Below are positions 570-10,572 of a stretch of 10,572 bases of DNA, in pieces. Under the pieces are notes generated by a model. That model had not been told where the DNA came from and did not search any database. It worked only from the letters and a program-made list of their open reading frames with translations. The stretch spans positions 1 to 10,572 of the IMG/VR virus record IMGVR_UViG_2526164633_000021; one strand, written 5' to 3'. The stretch's first letter is position 1, and each line of letters opens with the position of its first letter. Made by a program: the position numbers and the translations under genes. Source of the DNA: a virus (taxonomy: Duplodnaviria; Heunggongvirae; Uroviricota; Caudoviricetes).

Positions 570-1457
570 ACGGTAAACAAGGCTGGTAACGCCGTTCAGC
601 GTTCCGGCGATAAAATGACCGGAGAACTGAAAATTGGAACGATGAATGCGCTGCGAATTTTTAATGATGCCTTCGGTCTTATTTTCCGCCGTTCAGAAGA
701 GTCCCTTCATTTCATCCCTACGGCTGAAGGACAAGGCGAAAACGGTGATATCGGCCCATTAAGGCCATTCGCTATAAATCTAAGAACAGGTGCTATATAT
801 GTCAGCCACGGGGCCAAAATTGAAGGAGGTCTAGCTATTGGTGCTACTGATAACGCACTGGGTGAAAACTCCATTGTTCTGGGAGATAACGACACCGGAT
901 TTAGGCAAGATGGAGATGGTATTATTAGCTTCTATTCAAATGGTTCGCGCATCGGACATATTGATGGGTTAGGATTACATCTTTATAAAGATATTGAATC
1001 TAATTGCAGCAATTTTAGATTAAAAAGTAATTACCGCCACCACATTACATTCACCAACGAAGACGGAAGTATTCGTATGTTTTTGTGGAAAGATAACGGT
1101 GGTGATGGTGTTCATATTAATAACGGTTCAGATGGTGGTGGTGATTTCATTTTTAAAACAGATGGGGGATTTGCGCTGGGAAGTGGTGCGCAAGTTGCGT
1201 CTAGTGGCGATATTTATGGTTCAGTGTGGGGAAACAACTGGTTAAGCACATGGCTGCATAATCATGTCGTTCGGGATATTCGTCTTGGCAGCATTGAATA
1301 TAAAAACGTATGGCGCGACTACGGCTTTGGCGATGCGTCAGGTTATGTTTTAACAGCCGCAATTAACGGCAATGCGGATGATCTTGTCGACACTGTTGCC
1401 AGAAGGCCAATTCAGAAATTGATTGGGGGAATATGGTACAACGTGGGGAGTGTTTAA
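552..1457 (+). CDS. Tail-fibre variable C-terminal cassette 1 (receptor-binding part); no own start, frame opens directly after a TAA at 549-551 inside the crossover site
   Basis: Open frame from 552 to the stop at 1455-1457. The N-terminal peptide [26 protein letters not shown] is encoded across the site. The GDKMTGEL-type motif and a Gly/Asp/Asn-rich beta-type sequence are typical of side tail fibres. The C-terminus [30 protein letters not shown] is shared with cassette 2. Confidence 0.8.
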
Positions 1458-1458
1458 G

Positions 1459-1986
1459 ATGATGCACTTAAAAAATATTACTGCTGGCAACCCTAAAACA
1501 AAAGAACAATACCAGCTAACTGAAAAAGCGGGCGTGGTATGGCTCTTTTGCGAAGATGGCAAAAACTGGTATGAGGAACAAAAGAATTTTCAGCCAGACA
1601 CCATAAAAATTGCTTACGATGAGAACAACATCATCGTTGCTGTCAGTAAAGACGTTTCAACTATTAATCCTGAAGGTTTTAGCGTCGTTGAGGTTCCCGA
1701 TATAACAGCCAACCGCCGCGCTGATGATTCAGGAAAGTGGATGTTTAAGGATGGAGCTGTAGTTAAACGGATTTATACAGCAGACGAACAGCAACAACAG
1801 GCCGAATCACAAAAGGCCGTATTGCTTTCCGAAGCTGAATCAGTCATCCAGCCGCTGGAACGCGCTGTCAGGCTGAATATGGCAACAGACGAGGAACGCA
1901 CACGACTGGAAGCATGGGAACGCTACAGTGTTCTGGTCAGCCGTGTGGATACGGCAAATCCTGAATGGCCACAAAAGCCTGAATAA
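1459..1986 (+). CDS. Tail fibre assembly protein (Tfa; Mu U / P2 G-like chaperone) for cassette 1
   Basis: ATGATG start 1 nt after the cassette-1 stop, with GGGGAG about 10 nt upstream. The N-terminus [20 protein letters not shown] is identical to the opposite tfa; conserved [13 protein letters not shown] and [12 protein letters not shown] blocks; the C-terminal third is divergent. Confidence 0.85.
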
Positions 1987-1992
1987 AAATTA

Positions 1993-2010
1993 AGGCCCGC
2001 TATCGGGCCT
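1993..2010. terminator. Bidirectional intrinsic terminator hairpin between the two convergent tfa genes
   Basis: AGGCCCG-CTAT-CGGGCCT stem-loop in the 28-bp gap between the tfa1 stop (1984-1986) and the tfa2 stop (2015-2017). The minus-strand sense is followed by a T-rich tract (TTAATTTTTATT); the plus-strand tail is weaker. Confidence 0.6.
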
Positions 2011-2014
2011 TGTC

Positions 2015-2548
2015 TCATTCAGGTTGTTCGGGAAATGTTACTGGCAGGCTGGAGGTGTCTGTAGATTCGACTTTCTGCGCATAGAGCATCCACTCAGTTA
2101 ATTTTTGTTTATTCTCGTCGGAAATGATGCCCAGCCGTAGCTGTGAGTCCCATAGCTGGGTTTTATCCCTGACAAGTTGCAACAGGCTTTGCTTTTCATT
2201 CTCTGCCTGCTGCCTCTGTTCCTCCTCGGTATAAGTTCGCTTTATCACTACGCCATCTTTGAACATCCATTTACCCGAAATATCAGCCCGGCGATTTGCT
2301 GTAATATCAGGAACCTCAACGACGCTTGCGCCTTCTGGATTAATTGCTGAAACATCCTTTTCAATACAAATAATAACGTTGTTGTGGTCATAGACCATTT
2401 TCAACGTATCAGGCTGAAAGTTCTTTTGTTCCTCATACCAGTTTTTCCCATCCTCTGTATAAAGCCATTTGATGTTAAATTGTTTCGTTAGCTGGTATTG
2501 CTCTTTTGTTTTAGGGTTGCCAGCAGTAATATTTTTTAAGTGCATCAT
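2015..2548 (-). CDS. Tail fibre assembly protein (Tfa) for cassette 2
   Basis: 177-aa ORF starting [23 protein letters not shown]. Its start lies 2 nt downstream of the cassette-2 stop. Mosaic similarity to tfa1: identical N-terminus, divergent C-terminus. Confidence 0.85.
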
Positions 2549-2550
2549 AA

Positions 2551-3513
2551 TTAAATACTCCCCGCGTTATACCACGTTCCATTAATGCAATACTGAATTG
2601 GCCTTGCCTGAGTTGTATCAATTAATTCATCACGGTTTCCGTTAACTGAACCTGTAACGACATAACCTGACCTGTCAGACCAGCCGGGACCATTCCATGT
2701 CTGAACAGATGACAGACCGCCAAGGCGAATACCTGTAATAAACCTTGAGTTACATTCTGCCTGCGTATATGCTCCAACATCTCCCGCAGAGGGTTTGCGG
2801 GTTGTGGTGTAAAACTCTGACCAGTTAGCTTCAAAGCCATAACCATCACGCGCTGAACGATAAAAGATACCGCCATTTCTGTAATTCACGCGGAACTGTA
2901 CAGCAGGGCAACTCCCCGCATTCATATTAAAGTGGAGGATTAATGTCGATGCGCCACTGATATCTGCATTATAAACGCCGCTATTCCAGTTCCAGCCAAC
3001 AGCTTTATCATTTGCAACCCTGCTTCCTGTTTGCCCTAAAGCAAATGCAGGCTGCTGGTTTTTCGTGTTGTAGTCTCGTCGCCAGCCAGGAGCGTAAGCA
3101 TCACCATGATTAATATAAGTGAATTGAGCGTTAGTGATTCCGCCGCCGCTGGACGTACTCGGCGTGGTAACGCGTATGGTCATTGCGCCGCGAGTGCCAA
3201 TAACTTCCACCACAGCACCTGCAAGACAAATATTTCCGCAACCTGTATCTGTAATGACCTTATTGTTTGCATAAGCCCATGAGCCTTTGCACATCCAGTA
3301 AGGATGGTTAAATGCTCCCTGACTCTCCAGCCACGAAATAAATTGCGCGGTTGTCCAGACCTGACTATCACCACCAATATTCAGCCATGCGCTATATGCG
3401 CGGCAGGCACCAATATTTTTGGTGAAGGTATCTTTTCCTGGAATATCTGCGCCGTTCTGGTTTTTCTGTAATGCGCCAGAAGCCTGATTTACCGTTTCCT
3501 GTAAACCGAGGTT
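2551..3513 (-). CDS. Tail-fibre variable C-terminal cassette 2; no own start, frame opens directly after a TAA (plus 3514-3516) inside the crossover site
   Basis: The minus-strand frame is open for 73 codons upstream of the first Met at 3294, back to the crossover site. The N-terminal peptide [16 protein letters not shown] mirrors cassette 1 and is followed by unrelated sequence. The C-terminus [31 protein letters not shown] is conserved with cassette 1. Confidence 0.8.
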
Positions 3514-4064
3514 TTAGATAATGGCCGTTTCCGGCCTGCATGGCATGATTTGCGCTTTTGGACGGGAGATTCAGTGTGCTGATTGGTTATGTAAGGGTAT
3601 CAACAAATGACCAGAATACAGACCTGCAACGAAACGCTCTTGTTTGTGCAGGATGTGAACAAATATTTGAAGATAAATTAAGCGGAACAAAGACAGACCG
3701 ACCGGGATTAAAACGCGCTTTAAAGCAGCTTCAAAAAGGTGACACGCTGGTTGTCTGGAAACTGGATCGCCTTGGGCGAAGCATGAAACATCTGATTTCT
3801 CTCGTCGGAGAACTACGGGAGCGAGGGATTAATTTTCGCAGTCTGACCGACAGCATAGATACATCTTCTCCAATGGGGCGTTTTTTCTTCCACGTGATGG
3901 GTGCCCTGGCTGAAATGGAACGTGAATTAATTGTTGAACGTACACTGGCCGGACTGGCGGCAGCGCGCGCACGGGGGCGCACAGGCGGACGTCGACCGAA
4001 GCTGACAAAAGAACAGCATGAGCAAATAGCAAGGCTGATTAAAAACGGTCACGACAGAAAACAA
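3480..4064. repeat. Right arm of the large inverted repeat (pairs with 1-585)
   Basis: Same comparison as for the left arm. How far the duplication extends past 4064 cannot be judged because the left arm runs off the window. Confidence 0.9.
3496..3521. other. Site-specific recombination crossover site (gix/pix/cix/hix-like), right
   Basis: TTCCTGTAAACCGAGGTTTTAGATAA on the plus strand, which is the reverse complement of TTATCTAAAACCTCGGTTTACAGGAA. From memory this is within one base of the phage Mu gix site. Confidence 0.8.
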
Positions 4065-4166
4065 CTGGCAATAATTTACAGCATTGGTATATCGACAATT
4101 TATCGTTACCACCCCGCAGGAGAATCAAGTGGAACAATTGAGAAGAGTAAACAAAATAACCGCTAA
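3576..4166 (+). CDS. DNA invertase (Gin/Pin/Cin/Hin-family serine recombinase), complete
   Basis: 196 aa from GTG 3576, with GGGAGA 6 nt upstream; the ORF track's 3558 start is a TTG without an RBS. MLIGYVRVSTNDQNTDLQRNAL...GDTLVVWKLDRLGRS...MGRFFFHVMGALAEMERELIVERT match the catalytic domain of small serine invertases, with a C-terminal HTH-like region. Start codon choice is tentative. Confidence 0.9.
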   Translation: MLIGYVRVSTNDQNTDLQRNALVCAGCEQIFEDKLSGTKTDRPGLKRALKQLQKGDTLVVWKLDRLGRSMKHLISLVGELRERGINFRSLTDSIDTSSPMGRFFFHVMGALAEMERELIVERTLAGLAAARARGRTGGRRPKLTKEQHEQIARLIKNGHDRKQLAIIYSIGISTIYRYHPAGESSGTIEKSKQNNR

Positions 4167-4190
4167 TCTGGCCATTAGCGGTTTTTGTGT
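4159..4190. terminator. Bidirectional intrinsic terminator between the convergent invertase and tail U genes
   Basis: ACCGCTAAT-CTGGCC-ATTAGCGGT, a 9-bp stem, followed by TTTTTGTG on the plus strand; the minus-strand side is also T-rich. The invertase stop TAA (4164-4166) lies in the stem; the U stop is at 4195-4197. Confidence 0.65.
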
Positions 4191-4194
4191 TAAA

Positions 4195-4689
4195 TCAGAA
4201 CAGCCCTTTAACGGAGCTGGCCGCGCTGTTAAGGGATGATGTGACCTTATCTTTGAAGCCGGACAGCATATCACTGAACGATGAGGATTGCAGGCGTTCC
4301 CGCAAATCCTCATCGCAGCGTTCAAGAGTCAGTGAAAACTCTATCTTTTTCGCCTTGCCGTAGCGATCAAACTCGGAACGGGTCGTATTCGTTTCAGTCA
4401 GTACATACATGCCGTAAATCTGCCCGACACCATCAATCAGAGGCCAGGGGCGTCCTGTATATGCCTGCGTGGTCAGCAACGAAAGCGACACTTCGCCACC
4501 TGTAATTTCAGGATAAAGCACGCCGGAAAGCACGATGCGATCATCACCTGCGCCGATATACTGCCAGCTTGCTGAACGGTTAACGCGTTCATTTTTCACA
4601 TGCCGCCAGCTTTTGTTTTGCTGTAACTGCTGATGCGGCAATGTGCGCAGCTCAAAAACAAACATGCCGTAGATCATCATCATGGCCAT
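4195..4689 (-). CDS. Tail protein U-like (P2 gpU family)
   Basis: 164-aa ORF placed directly after the tape measure gene, with size and position as for P2 gpU. The first of several N-terminal Met codons is taken as the start. Confidence 0.75.
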   Translation of the reverse strand: MAMMMIYGMFVFELRTLPHQQLQQNKSWRHVKNERVNRSASWQYIGAGDDRIVLSGVLYPEITGGEVSLSLLTTQAYTGRPWPLIDGVGQIYGMYVLTETNTTRSEFDRYGKAKKIEFSLTLERCDEDLRERLQSSSFSDMLSGFKDKVTSSLNSAASSVKGLF

Positions 4690-4695
4690 GACTCC

Positions 4696-7511
4696 TCAAT
4701 CTTTATCGTAAAAACTGCCACGCCCGGCACGGGCGCGCCGTTCCATTTCTGCCCTGACCATTTCGCCAATCAGTTTCGCCAGTTCGCGGGGATTCTGTGT
4801 AACAACGTTATGCAGATGAACATGAATTTCACCGCCAAATCCGGAGGCAACAGGCTCCCGGTTACGGGAAGTTGCAGGAACTGATGCCACTGGCGATCGT
4901 ATAGCCTCCGCCACCGGGCGGGAGCTGGCCGCAACAACAGGGACCAGCGCCGGAGGCAGCGGAGCCGGAACCACGGGTGTGATAGTAATTGCGGGGGCAG
5001 GCTTACTGACCTGCGCAATCTTCCGCTCCTGCCACTCCCCACGAACAGCAAGTGCGCGGGGCAGGTTCTTAAAGACAATATCGCCGGGGCCAATGCGTTT
5101 TTTCGCTCATCAACCAGCTTACCTGTGTTATCAGCAATTTTGCTGAGTCTGCGTAGCGTACCGGTATTGCTGTCTGTGAGCGGTTTGTTGTCTTTGGGTT
5201 TATCACCTCCGGTGCCATTGCCATTTTCCACAGGCTTCGGCAGATTGATTTTCGCCAGGTCCCCCTGAAGCAAGGCAACCTTGTCCTGAAGAATGGCCGC
5301 ACGCTGTGCGTCTTCGATTTTCTTGCGCGCCCTTTCCGCTTCATCCGGAAGCACACCGAGTTTTTCAAGTATCCACGCCAGCGTATCCAGTAGCATTTTT
5401 GCAGGTGTCAGAACAAGCTGTAACGCACCGCCAAGAACGTTACCGAATATCTCGCCAGCACTGGTACATTTATCCAGCGTTTCCTTGCTGGACTCCATCG
5501 GTGACAGCAGCGATTTAAACCAGTTAAACACCTGGCTGATCCCGCTTCCGATTGCGTCAAAAACAGGGCCAAACCGTTCAAAGGTTTCGCGCAACGGGGC
5601 CAGTCGCTCCATAATCCCACTGAACACCCCGGCATAAAACGCCTTGATGGGTTCCCAGTATTTCCAGATGAGAACCGCCGCAGCGACAAACGCTGCAGCA
5701 ATCAACCCGACCGGACTGAACAGCGCCCCGATAGCGCCTCCCAGTAAAGAAACGGAACCCGTCACCATTCCCCATAGTGCTGGCAGGACCCTGACAGCAT
5801 TCATTGATCCGGTCAGGAGAGAAAAACCAAGACGCAGTTTTGCCAGCGGGCCAGCAAGCACACCAATAGCTAGCGACAACGAGCCAACCGTTGCAGTCAT
5901 TGCCAGCAACGCACCGCCTGCTATCAGTAGCTGGCGCGTCAGTGTCGGATGGGCCTGCGCCAGCGCCGTCACCCTTGATACCACCCGTGTGAGCCACTGC
6001 GTGACAGAACGCAGCGGACCGTCAATCAGATCTGCAATGCGGATGCGCAACCCTTCCCATGCACTGCCGAGTGATTTCAGATCGCCGTCAAGGTTGTTGG
6101 CCATAACCTTTGCTGTGCGTTCAGCCTCACCGCGCGCGCCTTCAAGTTCTTTTCTCAGTTTGGGTAAGGAGCCGTCACCCGCTGCATCAACGAGCGCCAT
6201 AAACGATGTGAAAGCCTCTTCTCCGGCAATGTCCTTAAAGAACGATACCCGGTCAACTTCCCCGTATTTGCGGGTGGCTTTATAAAGGTCGGCCAGTACA
6301 TCCTCCATCGGGCGCATTTTGCCGTTCGCGTCAGAGACAGCCACACCCAGCTCTTTCAGCGCCTCTGCTGCCGCCTTTGGCGGTGATGCCAGACGAGCCA
6401 GGCTGGCACGCATTGCCGTCCCGGCATCACTCCCTCTGATGCCCATATTCGCCAGCACGCCCGCCATCGCAGCGGCCTGCTCCAGCGATATTCCCAGCTT
6501 ACCCGCCACCGGACCTGCATATTTCATGGTTTCGCCCAGCGCGCGAAGGTCAGTGTTGGTACGGGTAAACGCCGCTGTAAGCGTGTCGCCAACCCGGTCC
6601 ATCTGGTCAGCAGAGAGGCCGAACTGCGTCAGGATATTTGAGCCAATATCCGCCGTCTCGCCGAGATCCATACCGCCAGCCGTTGCCATGCTCAGCACGC
6701 CGGGAAGCGCAGCCTGAATGGCCTGCGGAGTAAAACCAGCCATTGCAAGAAATGCCTGTCCACTGGCGGCATCTCCAGCGGTGAACTGCGTTTCAGAGCC
6801 AAGTTTTAACGCCTGCTCACGCAGCGCCTTAAACTGTGGGCTGTTTTTGTCGATTCGCGTCAGTGCCTGAACGCGGGACATCTCTTTCCCGAACCCAATC
6901 GCGGGCTGCAAAAAACGCCCGGCAGCATAGCCGCCCGCCGCTGCCGCACCTGTTGCCAGTGCACCACCTGTTTTCAGTTTTCCCGCGGTTTCCTGCGCGC
7001 GCGAATACCGCTCACGCGCCCGCGTTACACGCGCAAGCGCCTGCCGTTCGCGTTCAAGCTGGTTGTTGTACTGTTCGGTGCGCCTGATGGCCTGTTGAAT
7101 GGTGTTATCGCTGCCTGTCAGGGAAATGCCGTGGCGTTTCAGCTCTCCGCCAAGCTCCCGCATTTTCTGAATTTCCCGTATGCGCGATTCATTCAGGCGT
7201 TCAAGCCGGGTGCTTAACTGCTGCATCAGCTTTTGTTGCTTTTCGCTGAGCACTGTACCCGTGTGTTGTAACTGATTAAGGGCGTTAAGCTGGCGTCGAG
7301 CTTTCACGATGCCAGCATCCGCTTTACTGACAGCGTCACGGGCGCGCTCAAATGAACGCGCCTGACGCTCGAGATTTTTGATCGCCCCCTGCGTTCGCTG
7401 GATGGAGTCACCAAACTGCCCCATCAGGCGGCGGGCGTTTTCGGCAGGCCGGGTCAGCCTGTCAACGGCGCTGAAAGCGACCCGGATATCAAGAGTCTTC
7501 ATTGTCTGCAT
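4696..7511 (-). CDS. Tail tape measure protein (P2 gpT-like); reading frame disrupted by a 1-nt deficit at an A6 run (plus 5097-5103)
   Basis: N-terminal frame runs 7511 to about 5100: coiled-coil, Ala/Gly-rich and hydrophobic segments typical of tape measure proteins. The C-terminal ~134 codons (...GGEIHVHLHNVVTQNPRELAKLIGEMVRAEMERRARAGRGSFYDKD) are in the -1 frame, ending at 4696. Total length 2816 nt is not a multiple of 3. Start may be ATG 7511 or 7502, or GTG 7538. Confidence 0.85.
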
Positions 7512-8018
7512 TCCCGCTGCGAAGTGCCGCCCGCTCACGCCAGCTAACCACTTCGCCGGGCGTCATCATGAAGATTTCGGCGGGCGACCAGTTAAAAATA
7601 ACGGCAATATCTGCCACAAAGTCTTCTATGTGCTCAAAGCACACAACCGTGATCAGGCTTCCGTCGCCTGTTCGTTCTTCCCGCCAGAGTCCGCACCGCT
7701 CAAAAAATTTACGGCAACCACACATAACTGAATAAAGTCACGGGATGCCATTTTTTTGATCGTCACTTCATCCAGTCGCGGTGATGTCACGCGTGACAGC
7801 AGCGTAAACATGGATTCCGCTTTCAGATTCAGCACATCAGACAACGACAAATCTCGCAGAGATCCAGCCTGCTCAATAGCTCCGGTGATCTCCACATACG
7901 TGATTTTTTCGCCGCCTCGCTCAATTGGTTGGGTAAGTTTTACGCCACGCTCACTGGTTTCTTTCACAGTGTCAGCAACGACCGTGTTTTCGGTATCGAT
8001 GTTTTTCGTCTCTTTCAT
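7489..8018 (-). CDS. E+E' tail chaperone fusion made by a programmed -1 ribosomal frameshift
   Basis: The -1 frame after the slippery site is open for ~71 codons (ERCGLWREERTGDG...NADNEDS) and ends at 7489-7491, overlapping the tape measure start. This is the same topology as P2 E/E' and lambda G/GT. Confidence 0.7.
7653..8018 (-). CDS. Tail assembly chaperone E (P2 gpE-like), zero-frame product
   Basis: 121-aa ORF immediately upstream of the tape measure, with AAGGAG 7 nt upstream of the ATG. Contains the slippery TTTTTTG near its 3' end, as in the P2 E/E' system. Confidence 0.75.
   Translation of the reverse strand: MKETKNIDTENTVVADTVKETSERGVKLTQPIERGGEKITYVEITGAIEQAGSLRDLSLSDVLNLKAESMFTLLSRVTSPRLDEVTIKKMASRDFIQLCVVAVNFLSGADSGGKNEQATEA
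7701..7707 (-). promoter_or_regulatory. Slippery heptamer T TTT TTG for the E/E' -1 programmed frameshift
   Basis: Plus strand CAAAAAA is minus strand TTTTTTG, in register as ..AAT TTT TTG.. in the E frame. The next codon in the -1 frame is GAG, continuing the E' ORF. Confidence 0.7.
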
Positions 8019-8040
8019 CAGGAAACTCCTTTCAGTCAGA

Positions 8041-8059
8041 GGCGACGCACTGCGCCGCC
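8041..8059 (-). other. Intercistronic RNA stem-loop between FII and E
   Basis: GGCGGCGCA-G-UGCGUCGCC in the mRNA sense. One stem position is a G-U wobble in the RNA, whereas on the other strand it would be an A-C mismatch. No T-tract follows, so this is not a classic terminator. Confidence 0.35.
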
Positions 8060-8072
8060 TGCATATTACTTA

Positions 8073-8585
8073 TCAGCCAAGCCCAAGCGCGGAACGGATG
8101 CGATCGGGCACAATGTCCTTGCCGTCCTTCCGGTAAATGAAGTTCAGCAGGTCAATCTCCCACAACGGGCGATCGTTAACACTCAGCTTGTAGTAGGTGT
8201 TTTTAATGGCGTAAGTGTGTGATGTGGCTTCGCCCTGTTTGGCTTCCCCCATATCAATTTCCGTCACACGTCCGCGCATTTCGACTTCATACAGGTCGCT
8301 TTCTGCATCGGTGTAGTATTCACCCGCAAAACGCAGCAGCGTGCCGTCAATCGTGCCGCCATACTTCAGGAACAGCTCACGAACTGCGCCCCCCATGACA
8401 AAGCTCGCATCAAGCGCGGAGTCGTCCAGACCGAGATCAATACTTACCGCACCCATCATGCCACCACCCCGGTAGCTGTCGGTTTTGCGCGTCAGCTTAG
8501 GCAGAGTGACGGACGTCACCTTACCCACTTCGTTTTCACCATCCACAAACAGCGTAAAAAAGCGAAGATGTTTTGGCACAGCCAT
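8073..8585 (-). CDS. Tail tube protein (P2 gpFII-like)
   Basis: 170-aa ORF: MAVPKHLRFF...KVTSVTLPKLTRKTDSYRGGGMMGAVSIDLGLDDSALDA matches the FII tail tube family. Its ATG overlaps the FI stop (TGATG). Confidence 0.9.
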   Translation of the reverse strand: MAVPKHLRFFTLFVDGENEVGKVTSVTLPKLTRKTDSYRGGGMMGAVSIDLGLDDSALDASFVMGGAVRELFLKYGGTIDGTLLRFAGEYYTDAESDLYEVEMRGRVTEIDMGEAKQGEATSHTYAIKNTYYKLSVNDRPLWEIDLLNFIYRKDGKDIVPDRIRSALGLG

Positions 8586-9768
8586 CAGGCACCTCCCAGC
8601 ACCGCAAATGCAGGTTCAAAGTATTCATCAGTAAACGTCTGGTAAAGCTCCATGTCTTCCAGTGGCGGAACGGGCGTATATTTGTAGCGAATACGCACAC
8701 GCCCCTGCGTAAATCCGTGGTGCTGTTATCCACCACGTCATACCAGCACTCCGCGCCAATCAGTTTCCCGGCAGTCACCAGTGAATCCAGTTTTGCCCTG
8801 ATGGCACTGATAACATCCTTCACGTTCGCAGGCGTCAGTGGACTGTCGATGGTTTCAAACTGCGCTTCTGCAATTGAATCAGCCAGCACCTGTGCGGTTC
8901 GGGTATACACCTCAAAGATGTAGGCGTTCGTTTCCGGTGTGCGGTTGCCCCAGAAGCGGAACCCGTTGCGACGAATAATGGTCGTGATTTCTTTGTTGTT
9001 GAGGCTGTTGGCATCGCTGTCTTCGGCCTGCAACGACCAGAACACATGCCTCGACATCCCCAGCACATTTTTAACCGGAACGTTGGACAGCGATTTGTGC
9101 CAGCCCTGCTCATGGTCAATGTACGCACGAAGGCCGCACGCATAGGCAGGCGCGGGGAACGTTTCGTTTTTGCCACTTTTCGGGTTGTAGGCGATGAAGT
9201 CCGGCCATAAGAGCATCACTTCACGTTCGTTGAATTTCTGGCGGTAGGTAATCGCTTCAGCCATCGTGTTACAGCCGCGACATGAGGCATACACAAATGC
9301 GCGCAGTTTACCCGCAATCACGCACAGGGATTTTGTCACCGCCTCCGTGTCCAGCTCCGGCGCGGCCAGAATACGCGGACGGTATCCGATGCTTTCATCC
9401 TGCTCTGCAACAAGCAGCGCATACATCCCCGTATAGCTGCCGTCAGATTCAGAACCACCGATAACCAGTTGATCCTGCGTTTTTCCGTCTTCTTCTTTGT
9501 GTTCAGCCACGCGAACGACGATCACCTTTGTGCTCACCTGGTCTGCGATGGCCTTAAGCGCACGATAAAGCGTCCCCGTTGTCCCGCATTTTCCCAGCAC
9601 GTCATTGACGCGGGTCAGCAGTGTGGGCTTGTTCAGCGGGAACAGCTTCGCGTCCGCATCATCCGCCGTTGCCACGATACCGATAACGCTGGAATCAACA
9701 TCGTTAATCGCTGTTACCAGGTCGGTATTTTCCGTAACACGGGCACCATGAAAACGAGTTTCACTCAT
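8585..9768 (-). CDS. Tail sheath protein (P2 gpFI-like); frame disrupted by a 1-nt deficit between plus 8702 and 8726
   Basis: The N-terminal ~355 codons match the sheath family (WPDF, IDHEQGWHKSLSNV, IIRRNGFRFWGNRT, YTRTAQV). The conserved C-terminus RIRYKYTPVPPLEDMELYQTFTDEYFEPAFAVLGGA is in the -1 frame. Length 1184 nt is not a multiple of 3. Confidence 0.85.
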
Positions 9769-9925
9769 AGCTTCAGCCCCTTGTATCCGTTAAATGATTC
9801 GGCAACAATCATCACCCACCACGCGCGTAATCTCACCCCTGCGCCGTTCTCCCGCCACGGCGACAACAAAAAGCAGTAACCCCCTCCGCACGCACATGCG
9901 ACCATGCCGCACAGGGAGGGAGCAG

Positions 9926-10572
9926 ATGACCGACACCACCATGCAATTGCTCAGTCAGGGCACAGACCCCGTGAAAATGCCGGATTTTGATATTCTCGCG
10001 GAGGGTAAAACGCTGTCAGGCGTGGCAGAGCGCCTGATGAGCCTGTCACTGACCGACAACCGGGGATTTGAGGCGGACCAGCTCACCATCACGTTGGATG
10101 ATGCGGATGGTCAGTTGCAGCTACCGCCACGGGGCGCGCGCCTGACGGTTCTCATTGGCTGGAAGGGAGAACCGCTGACAGAAAAAGGCACTTACATTGT
10201 TGATGAAATCGCTCACGAAGGACCGCCGGACAGGCTGACTGTTTCAGCCAGAAGCGCAGATTTTCGGGATGAATTTAACGTTAAACGTGAGGTGTCCTGG
10301 CATGATGTGACCGTTGAGCGTGTGGTATCCGCCATCGCTCATCGGTATGGTCTGAAACCGCAAATCAGCGAAATGCTGATGGATATCGAAATCGACCACG
10401 CCGACCAGACCGAAGAAAGCGACATGTCCTTCCTTACGCGCATGGCGGAAATGCTGGGCGCAATCACCACGGTAAAAAGCGGTAATCTGTTATTCATCAT
10501 GCCCGGTGGTGGCGTGAACGCACAGGGCCAGCCGTTGCCATCGTTCGCCATCACACGCAGCAGCGGCGATCG
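9926..10572 (+). CDS. Tail protein D-like (phage late control gene D / GPD family), N-terminal 215 codons; continues past the window end
   Basis: ATG at 9926 with AGGGAGGG 6 nt upstream. LMSLSLTDNRGFEADQLTITLDDADGQ and SARSADFR...WHD...ESDMSFLTRMAE match the conserved N-terminal region of P2 gpD, as recalled from memory. Confidence 0.85.
   Translation, partial: MTDTTMQLLSQGTDPVKMPDFDILAEGKTLSGVAERLMSLSLTDNRGFEADQLTITLDDADGQLQLPPRGARLTVLIGWKGEPLTEKGTYIVDEIAHEGPPDRLTVSARSADFRDEFNVKREVSWHDVTVERVVSAIAHRYGLKPQISEMLMDIEIDHADQTEESDMSFLTRMAEMLGAITTVKSGNLLFIMPGGGVNAQGQPLPSFAITRSSGD

Follow-up and report, generated by a model that had tools for sequence, protein, structure and literature searches.

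The window, that is the whole stretch of DNA analysed here, is the entire contig AIHB01000045.1 (10,572 bp) of the E. coli DEC12B draft genome (GCA_000250235.2), an assembly of the 2012 era. It is 95.8% identical to phage P88 (Xuanwuvirus, Peduoviridae) over 8,981 nt, and both share the gene order D, sheath, tube, E, E', T, U, invertase and invertible fibre segment. All tail genes of the window are encoded on the minus strand, and the neighbours of the tape measure gene T match the Pfam families PF06528, PF06995, PF04985 and PF04984. Nucleotide identity and synteny with P88 assign the contig to a P88-like (Xuanwuvirus, Peduoviridae) prophage, of which it carries the tail module. In the related strain 12A this family is represented by three prophages. 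The features considered below are as follows.

4195..4689, minus strand: gpU-like tail protein (PF06995), with its ATG at 4689, 6 nt past the restored T stop
4696..5106, minus strand: last 135 codons of T (conserved C-terminus), displaced into the -1 frame, with 97-98.6% nucleotide identity to annotated intact T genes
4770..7502 (open frame 4770..7538), minus strand: broken T ORF, GenBank EHX29049.1, 910 aa, the last ~110 residues out of frame
5103-5097, minus strand: heptamer A AAA AAC, which the broken T frame upstream divides as X XXY YYZ
Between 5106 and 5105, minus strand: missing base, the A of an ACG (Thr) codon; relatives GAG ACG AAA AAA CGN, window GAG CG AAA AAA CGC
5112-5107, minus strand: TGA TGA in the -1 frame, closing that frame just upstream
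7653..8018, minus strand: E ORF; the E' frame reaches 7489 and overlaps the T start
7707-7701, minus strand: E/E' tail chaperone -1 frameshift site, T TTT TTG, in register and of the canonical P2 type
8707..8708, minus strand: private 1-nt deletion in the sheath gene (ORF 8536..9768); relatives TTACGTCAGG, window TTACGCAGG, i.e. TTACG[T]CAGG

The contig is short and bounded by repeats. An inverted repeat of 599 nt (97% complementary) links positions 1-599 with positions 3466-4064 and corresponds to two invertase copies, which flank the invertible tail-fibre segment with its fibre and assembly-protein cassettes (615-3294). The second, inverted, 97%-identical copy occupies the place of the constant part of fibre gene H, and the contig terminates within it. 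This copy could be a mis-join through the crossover sites, could stem from reads of the flipped orientation or of another prophage copy, or could be a real rearrangement.

The T gene has the core domain of tape measure proteins (PF10145, PhageMin_Tail; residues 228-427, E = 2e-58) and is located between the E/E' chaperone genes and gpU, and it is not the single uninterrupted ORF of family length (935 aa). At the break the T frame reads GAT GAG CGA AAA AAC GCA (5111-5094, minus strand), and beyond it the frame continues through about 110 Arg/Leu/Pro-rich codons to a stop at 4770. The out-of-frame continuation (4770-5096, minus strand) has no stop in these ~110 codons, and because it stays open the gene was called at the nearly full length of 910 aa and the break went unflagged in GenBank. 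The -1 frame begins with the codon GCG (5106-5104). Since TGA TGA at 5112-5107 precedes it, a switch of frame is only possible at or after 5106. Its translation, AKKRIGPGDIVFKNLPRALAVRGEWQERK...GGEIHVHLHNV...RAGRGSFYDKD, stops at 4696. The first-pass annotation had described both frames, the upstream one (GAG CGA AAA AAC GCA, then 110 codons rich in Arg, Leu and Pro) and a -1 frame encoding a conserved-looking T C-terminus that ends 6 nt before U. Direct reading confirmed both, and the T genes of the relatives bear out the second. Adding one A back yields a T of 935 aa that is colinear with its relatives. The broken ORF of 910 codons contains three in-register heptamers of the slippery type, A AAA AAC among them; the other two are G GGA AAA (6978-6984) and T TTT TTG (6909-6915), likewise on the minus strand.

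To locate the missing base we used the relatives of the window, with alignments at the T site to P88, copies 1 and 2 of strain 12A, 14EC047 and E300082. P88 reads GAT GAG ACG AAA AAA CGT at this site and has the same six A's, in frame as Lys-Lys. The lost A lies between G5106 and C5105, outside any homopolymer and 2 nt upstream of the A6 run, so that the window reads GAGCGAAAAAAC across the deletion where the intact form is GAGACGAAAAAAC. In the alignment the extra base is present in all 121 covering loci. A pattern count over 127 loci agrees: ACG followed by A6 occurs in 126 of the 126 relatives containing the region, and CG followed by A6 in the window only. The junction had been placed at the A6 run itself and attributed to an undercalled homopolymer. 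The slippery register of this run stands, and the placement does not, as the lost A precedes the run. Nor does the undercall, since A6 is the standard length in all 126 relatives and none points to A7 as the norm in homologues. The A-run errors of long-read assemblies, invoked as context for the undercall, may not apply to a draft of this age, which is not obviously long-read.

When a base is lost shortly before an in-frame AAA AAA dicodon, the nucleotides that follow fall into the A AAA AAC register automatically. The register is thus a by-product of the place of the deletion and no evolved signal.

Among more than 1,500 homologous copies the deletion is private to this one contig, as sequence comparisons at three levels show. 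First, a 61-nt query over the T site matched 1,366 complete E. coli records in 1,519 places; none of the 1,366 is identical to the window at its best place, and the best matches (98.4%) have a one-base gap. The three prophage copies of strain 12A all lack the deletion. Second, a 24-mer spanning the deletion had no match in collections of viral, genome and metagenome contigs, while the intact 25-mer matched at least 120 viral contigs. Third, an exact look-up among ~15 billion proteins found the 910-aa product on AIHB01000045.1 only. This product clusters with 13,557 tape measure proteins, of which the listed full-length members all have 935 aa. The earlier expectation of a single uninterrupted T ORF is borne out by the relatives, which carry an uninterrupted T of 935 codons. 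This includes P88 (YP_009113088.1) and related E. coli prophages, where T is a single protein; they resemble the window in gene order and in the 3' region of T, and differ from it in that the window lacks one A at 5105/5106 and its T is split.

The arrangement of the two frames could be taken for a second programmed -1 frameshift in the tail operon, in which case this lineage would make T by slipping on A AAA AAC. A canonical-looking heptamer is indeed in register (5103-5097) within the overlap of the 0 and -1 frames, right where the -1 frame opens (5106), and the same motif is a proven low-level site in the insertion sequence IS1 (PMC4066793). However, no homologue needs the shift: T is read without a break at 126 of 126 loci and at all 1,519 E. 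coli places, and not one of the 1,366 E. coli records has the sequence of the window at this site; the layout of T as two ORFs exists in one contig only. Neither this layout nor the register of the motif is conserved among homologues. A stimulatory element was found neither as a hairpin or pseudoknot 5-9 nt downstream nor as a Shine-Dalgarno-like sequence upstream. The 107 nt downstream fold at -36.8 kcal/mol against a shuffle mean of -38.2 kcal/mol (z = +0.44; 130 of 200 shuffles as good), in line with the first-pass annotation, which had seen no convincing stimulator close downstream, and direct reading of the segment 6-17 nt upstream (GGTAAGCTGGTTGATGAGCG) detected no element of the GGAGG/AGGAGG type. 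In addition, A_AA.A_AA.C is inefficient in E. coli, where bacterial ribosomes poorly tolerate the re-pairing from AAC to AAA (PMC4066793). With such a low-efficiency motif nearly all T would be the aberrant 910-aa form.

Two known frameshift systems can be compared with the T site. The IS1 insA-insB' pair uses the same heptamer, likewise without an established stimulator (PMC4066793); IS1 conserves both the motif and the arrangement in two ORFs, and makes its transposase as the low-level fusion, whereas the layout in the window is limited to one contig and results from a private deletion. The P2-type E/E' frameshift belongs to the same operon as T. The window keeps its T TTT TTG in register (7707-7701), and the -1 frame following it spans the GpE segment (PF06528) and ends at 7489. 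The E/E' site is conserved across the family and annotated in every relative, in contrast to the T site. The programmed reading is effectively refuted by this non-conservation, and we consider it extremely improbable. The first-pass annotation had already held it to be the less likely option, and the private layout and the in-frame homologues uphold that judgement.

A second private deletion of one nucleotide was found in the tail sheath gene (8707..8708). All 92 relatives compared at this site carry the extra base, and an exact copy of the window's sequence here was found in none of 1,100 E. coli records. The sheath product has 410 aa instead of 394; its last ~57 residues are garbled, and the frame overlaps the tube gene. 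This 410-aa protein is a singleton in an exact protein look-up, and the C-terminal sheath domain of the window is below the Pfam threshold. The break has no in-register slippery heptamer. Taken at face value, it would leave this prophage copy unable to build a sheath, whatever T does.

The sequence context is shared by the two losses. Each lost base is a singleton, and a run of the same base (6 and 3 long) lies exactly one T-A-C-G flow cycle away, which holds on both strands; the contexts are A-CG-AAAAAA in T and TTT-ACG-T in the sheath gene. As 3.3% of the window bases are in such a context, two of two would occur by chance with a probability of ~0.001, a value to be read with the fact that the pattern was spotted after the fact in two events. 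The shared context is a possible signature of over-correction in pyrosequencing, a reading that presumes 454 data for DEC12B. Indels in 454 data are documented to arise from carry-forward and incomplete extension (PMC3116506), and in a sister study contemporaneous E. coli drafts from the same centre were produced with 454 Titanium and Celera (PMC3491183).

We therefore favour, on the strength of the second private single-base loss and of the pyrosequencing-prone context of both, an artefact of base calling or assembly in the draft contig as the probable origin of the T deletion. Under this model one base, the A of the ACG (Thr) codon directly upstream of the in-frame AAA AAA, would have been dropped during base calling or assembly of the draft. 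Its loss divides the 935-codon T into an ORF of 910 codons, whose tail is out of frame, and a C-terminus stranded in the -1 frame. The intact T contains six in-frame XXX YYY dicodons in 936 codons, and a random deletion would fall in the codon preceding one of them in ~0.6% of cases; the flow-cycle model would explain why the loss is found beside the A-run. Errors are expected in repeat regions such as those of this contig, which is bounded by repeats and belongs to a prophage family that is multicopy in 12A.

We compared positions 3500-10572 of the window with the three 12A prophages and with strain 300709. The contig is a fine mosaic, in which 200-nt blocks without differences alternate among 12A copies 1, 2 and 3 and strain 300709. 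The substitutions that set the window apart from every 12A copy number only 14, of which 12 fall within 5631-5988, a segment that is unlike any 12A copy and 99.9% identical to strain 300709. The contig was also considered as a collapsed consensus of the three 12A copies. This is partly supported: most bases match some copy, and 5631-5988 matches none. Since this segment matches strain 300709 and no 12A copy, natural mosaicism explains the pattern at least as well, and the pattern as a whole fits either natural recombination or a mixed assembly. The repaired T and sheath proteins are absent from the collection of 15 billion proteins. Their absence says nothing, since mosaicism and private substitutions make the allele unique. 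The private substitutions are H164R in the sheath, one synonymous change in T and one change in D; T108I, which at first appeared private, is common to 13 genomes including 12A copy 2.

These private substitutions, with two of three in sheath and T counted as nonsynonymous, are evidence of some real divergence of the lineage and agree with a prophage in decay. They can be set against the artefact, together with the frameshifted T genes of other genomes such as 14EC047, as compatible with a real deletion, by which T and the sheath gene would both be pseudogenes in a decaying member of several related DEC12B prophages. Prophage decay is common. In 14EC047, RefSeq flags T and several fibre genes as frameshifted or partial, and the broken fibre genes lie beside the frameshifted T. 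Its T pseudogene (CR540_RS07635, 'frameshifted' according to PGAP) has lost one nucleotide as well, but elsewhere in the gene, by a change from G5 to G4 in a G-run equivalent to window position 5265; this is a true change of homopolymer length, unlike that in the window. The deletion of the window is, however, seen nowhere else and is missing from each of the three prophages of 12A, and an artefact better accounts for the flow-cycle context that the two losses share. We hold a genuine inactivating deletion to be the less likely of these two origins, if a serious one, and far ahead of a programmed frameshift. The earlier ranking, in which a 1-nt miscall or a recent inactivating deletion came first, thus holds, given a deletion private among more than 1,500 copies; only its A-run detail has to be dropped.

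If the deletion is genuine, T could be rescued at a low level, either by a few ribosomes that slip by -1 on A AAA AAC or by an RNA polymerase that adds an A, and in both cases the full-length protein would carry a Thr-to-Arg replacement. A run of six A's is short for transcriptional slippage. The rescued T is predicted to contain Thr797Arg (…VDERKKRIGPG…), with the junction peptide ...LVDERKKRIGPGDIVFK. Such rescue would be adventitious leaky suppression, with no programmed signal. Even where no stimulator is present, frameshifting on A_AA.A_AA.C in E. coli exceeds 0.10%, and the motif is in use in IS1 (PMC4066793). From a background of ~0.055% and ratios of 2.1-10-fold for constructs without stimulators (PMC4066793), we infer that at most roughly 0.1-1% of ribosomes would slip if the deletion were real. 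The low probability (~0.6%) of a random deletion near a slippery dicodon could also reflect survival of a leaky allele. However, the sheath break lacks an in-register heptamer and this copy would form no tails whatever T does; with tails impossible, a leaky T has no selective rationale. We regard it as improbable that a genuine deletion is combined with a -1 slip, or for a smaller share of the product with a transcriptional A insertion, to give a little full-length T with Thr797Arg. If this were true, slippage at the site would preserve part of the function of a frameshifted tail gene, as a natural 'saviour'.

A second programmed frameshift in a P2-type tail operon would be new biology, if true, and the evidence is against it. 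Close relatives, once compared, answer the question quickly, and they also put right the cause that had been assumed, as the loss is outside the homopolymer. The locus calls for caution in the annotation of recoding: wherever an in-frame XXX YYY dicodon closely follows, the loss of one base automatically yields a textbook heptamer in register, which can pass for a recoding site.
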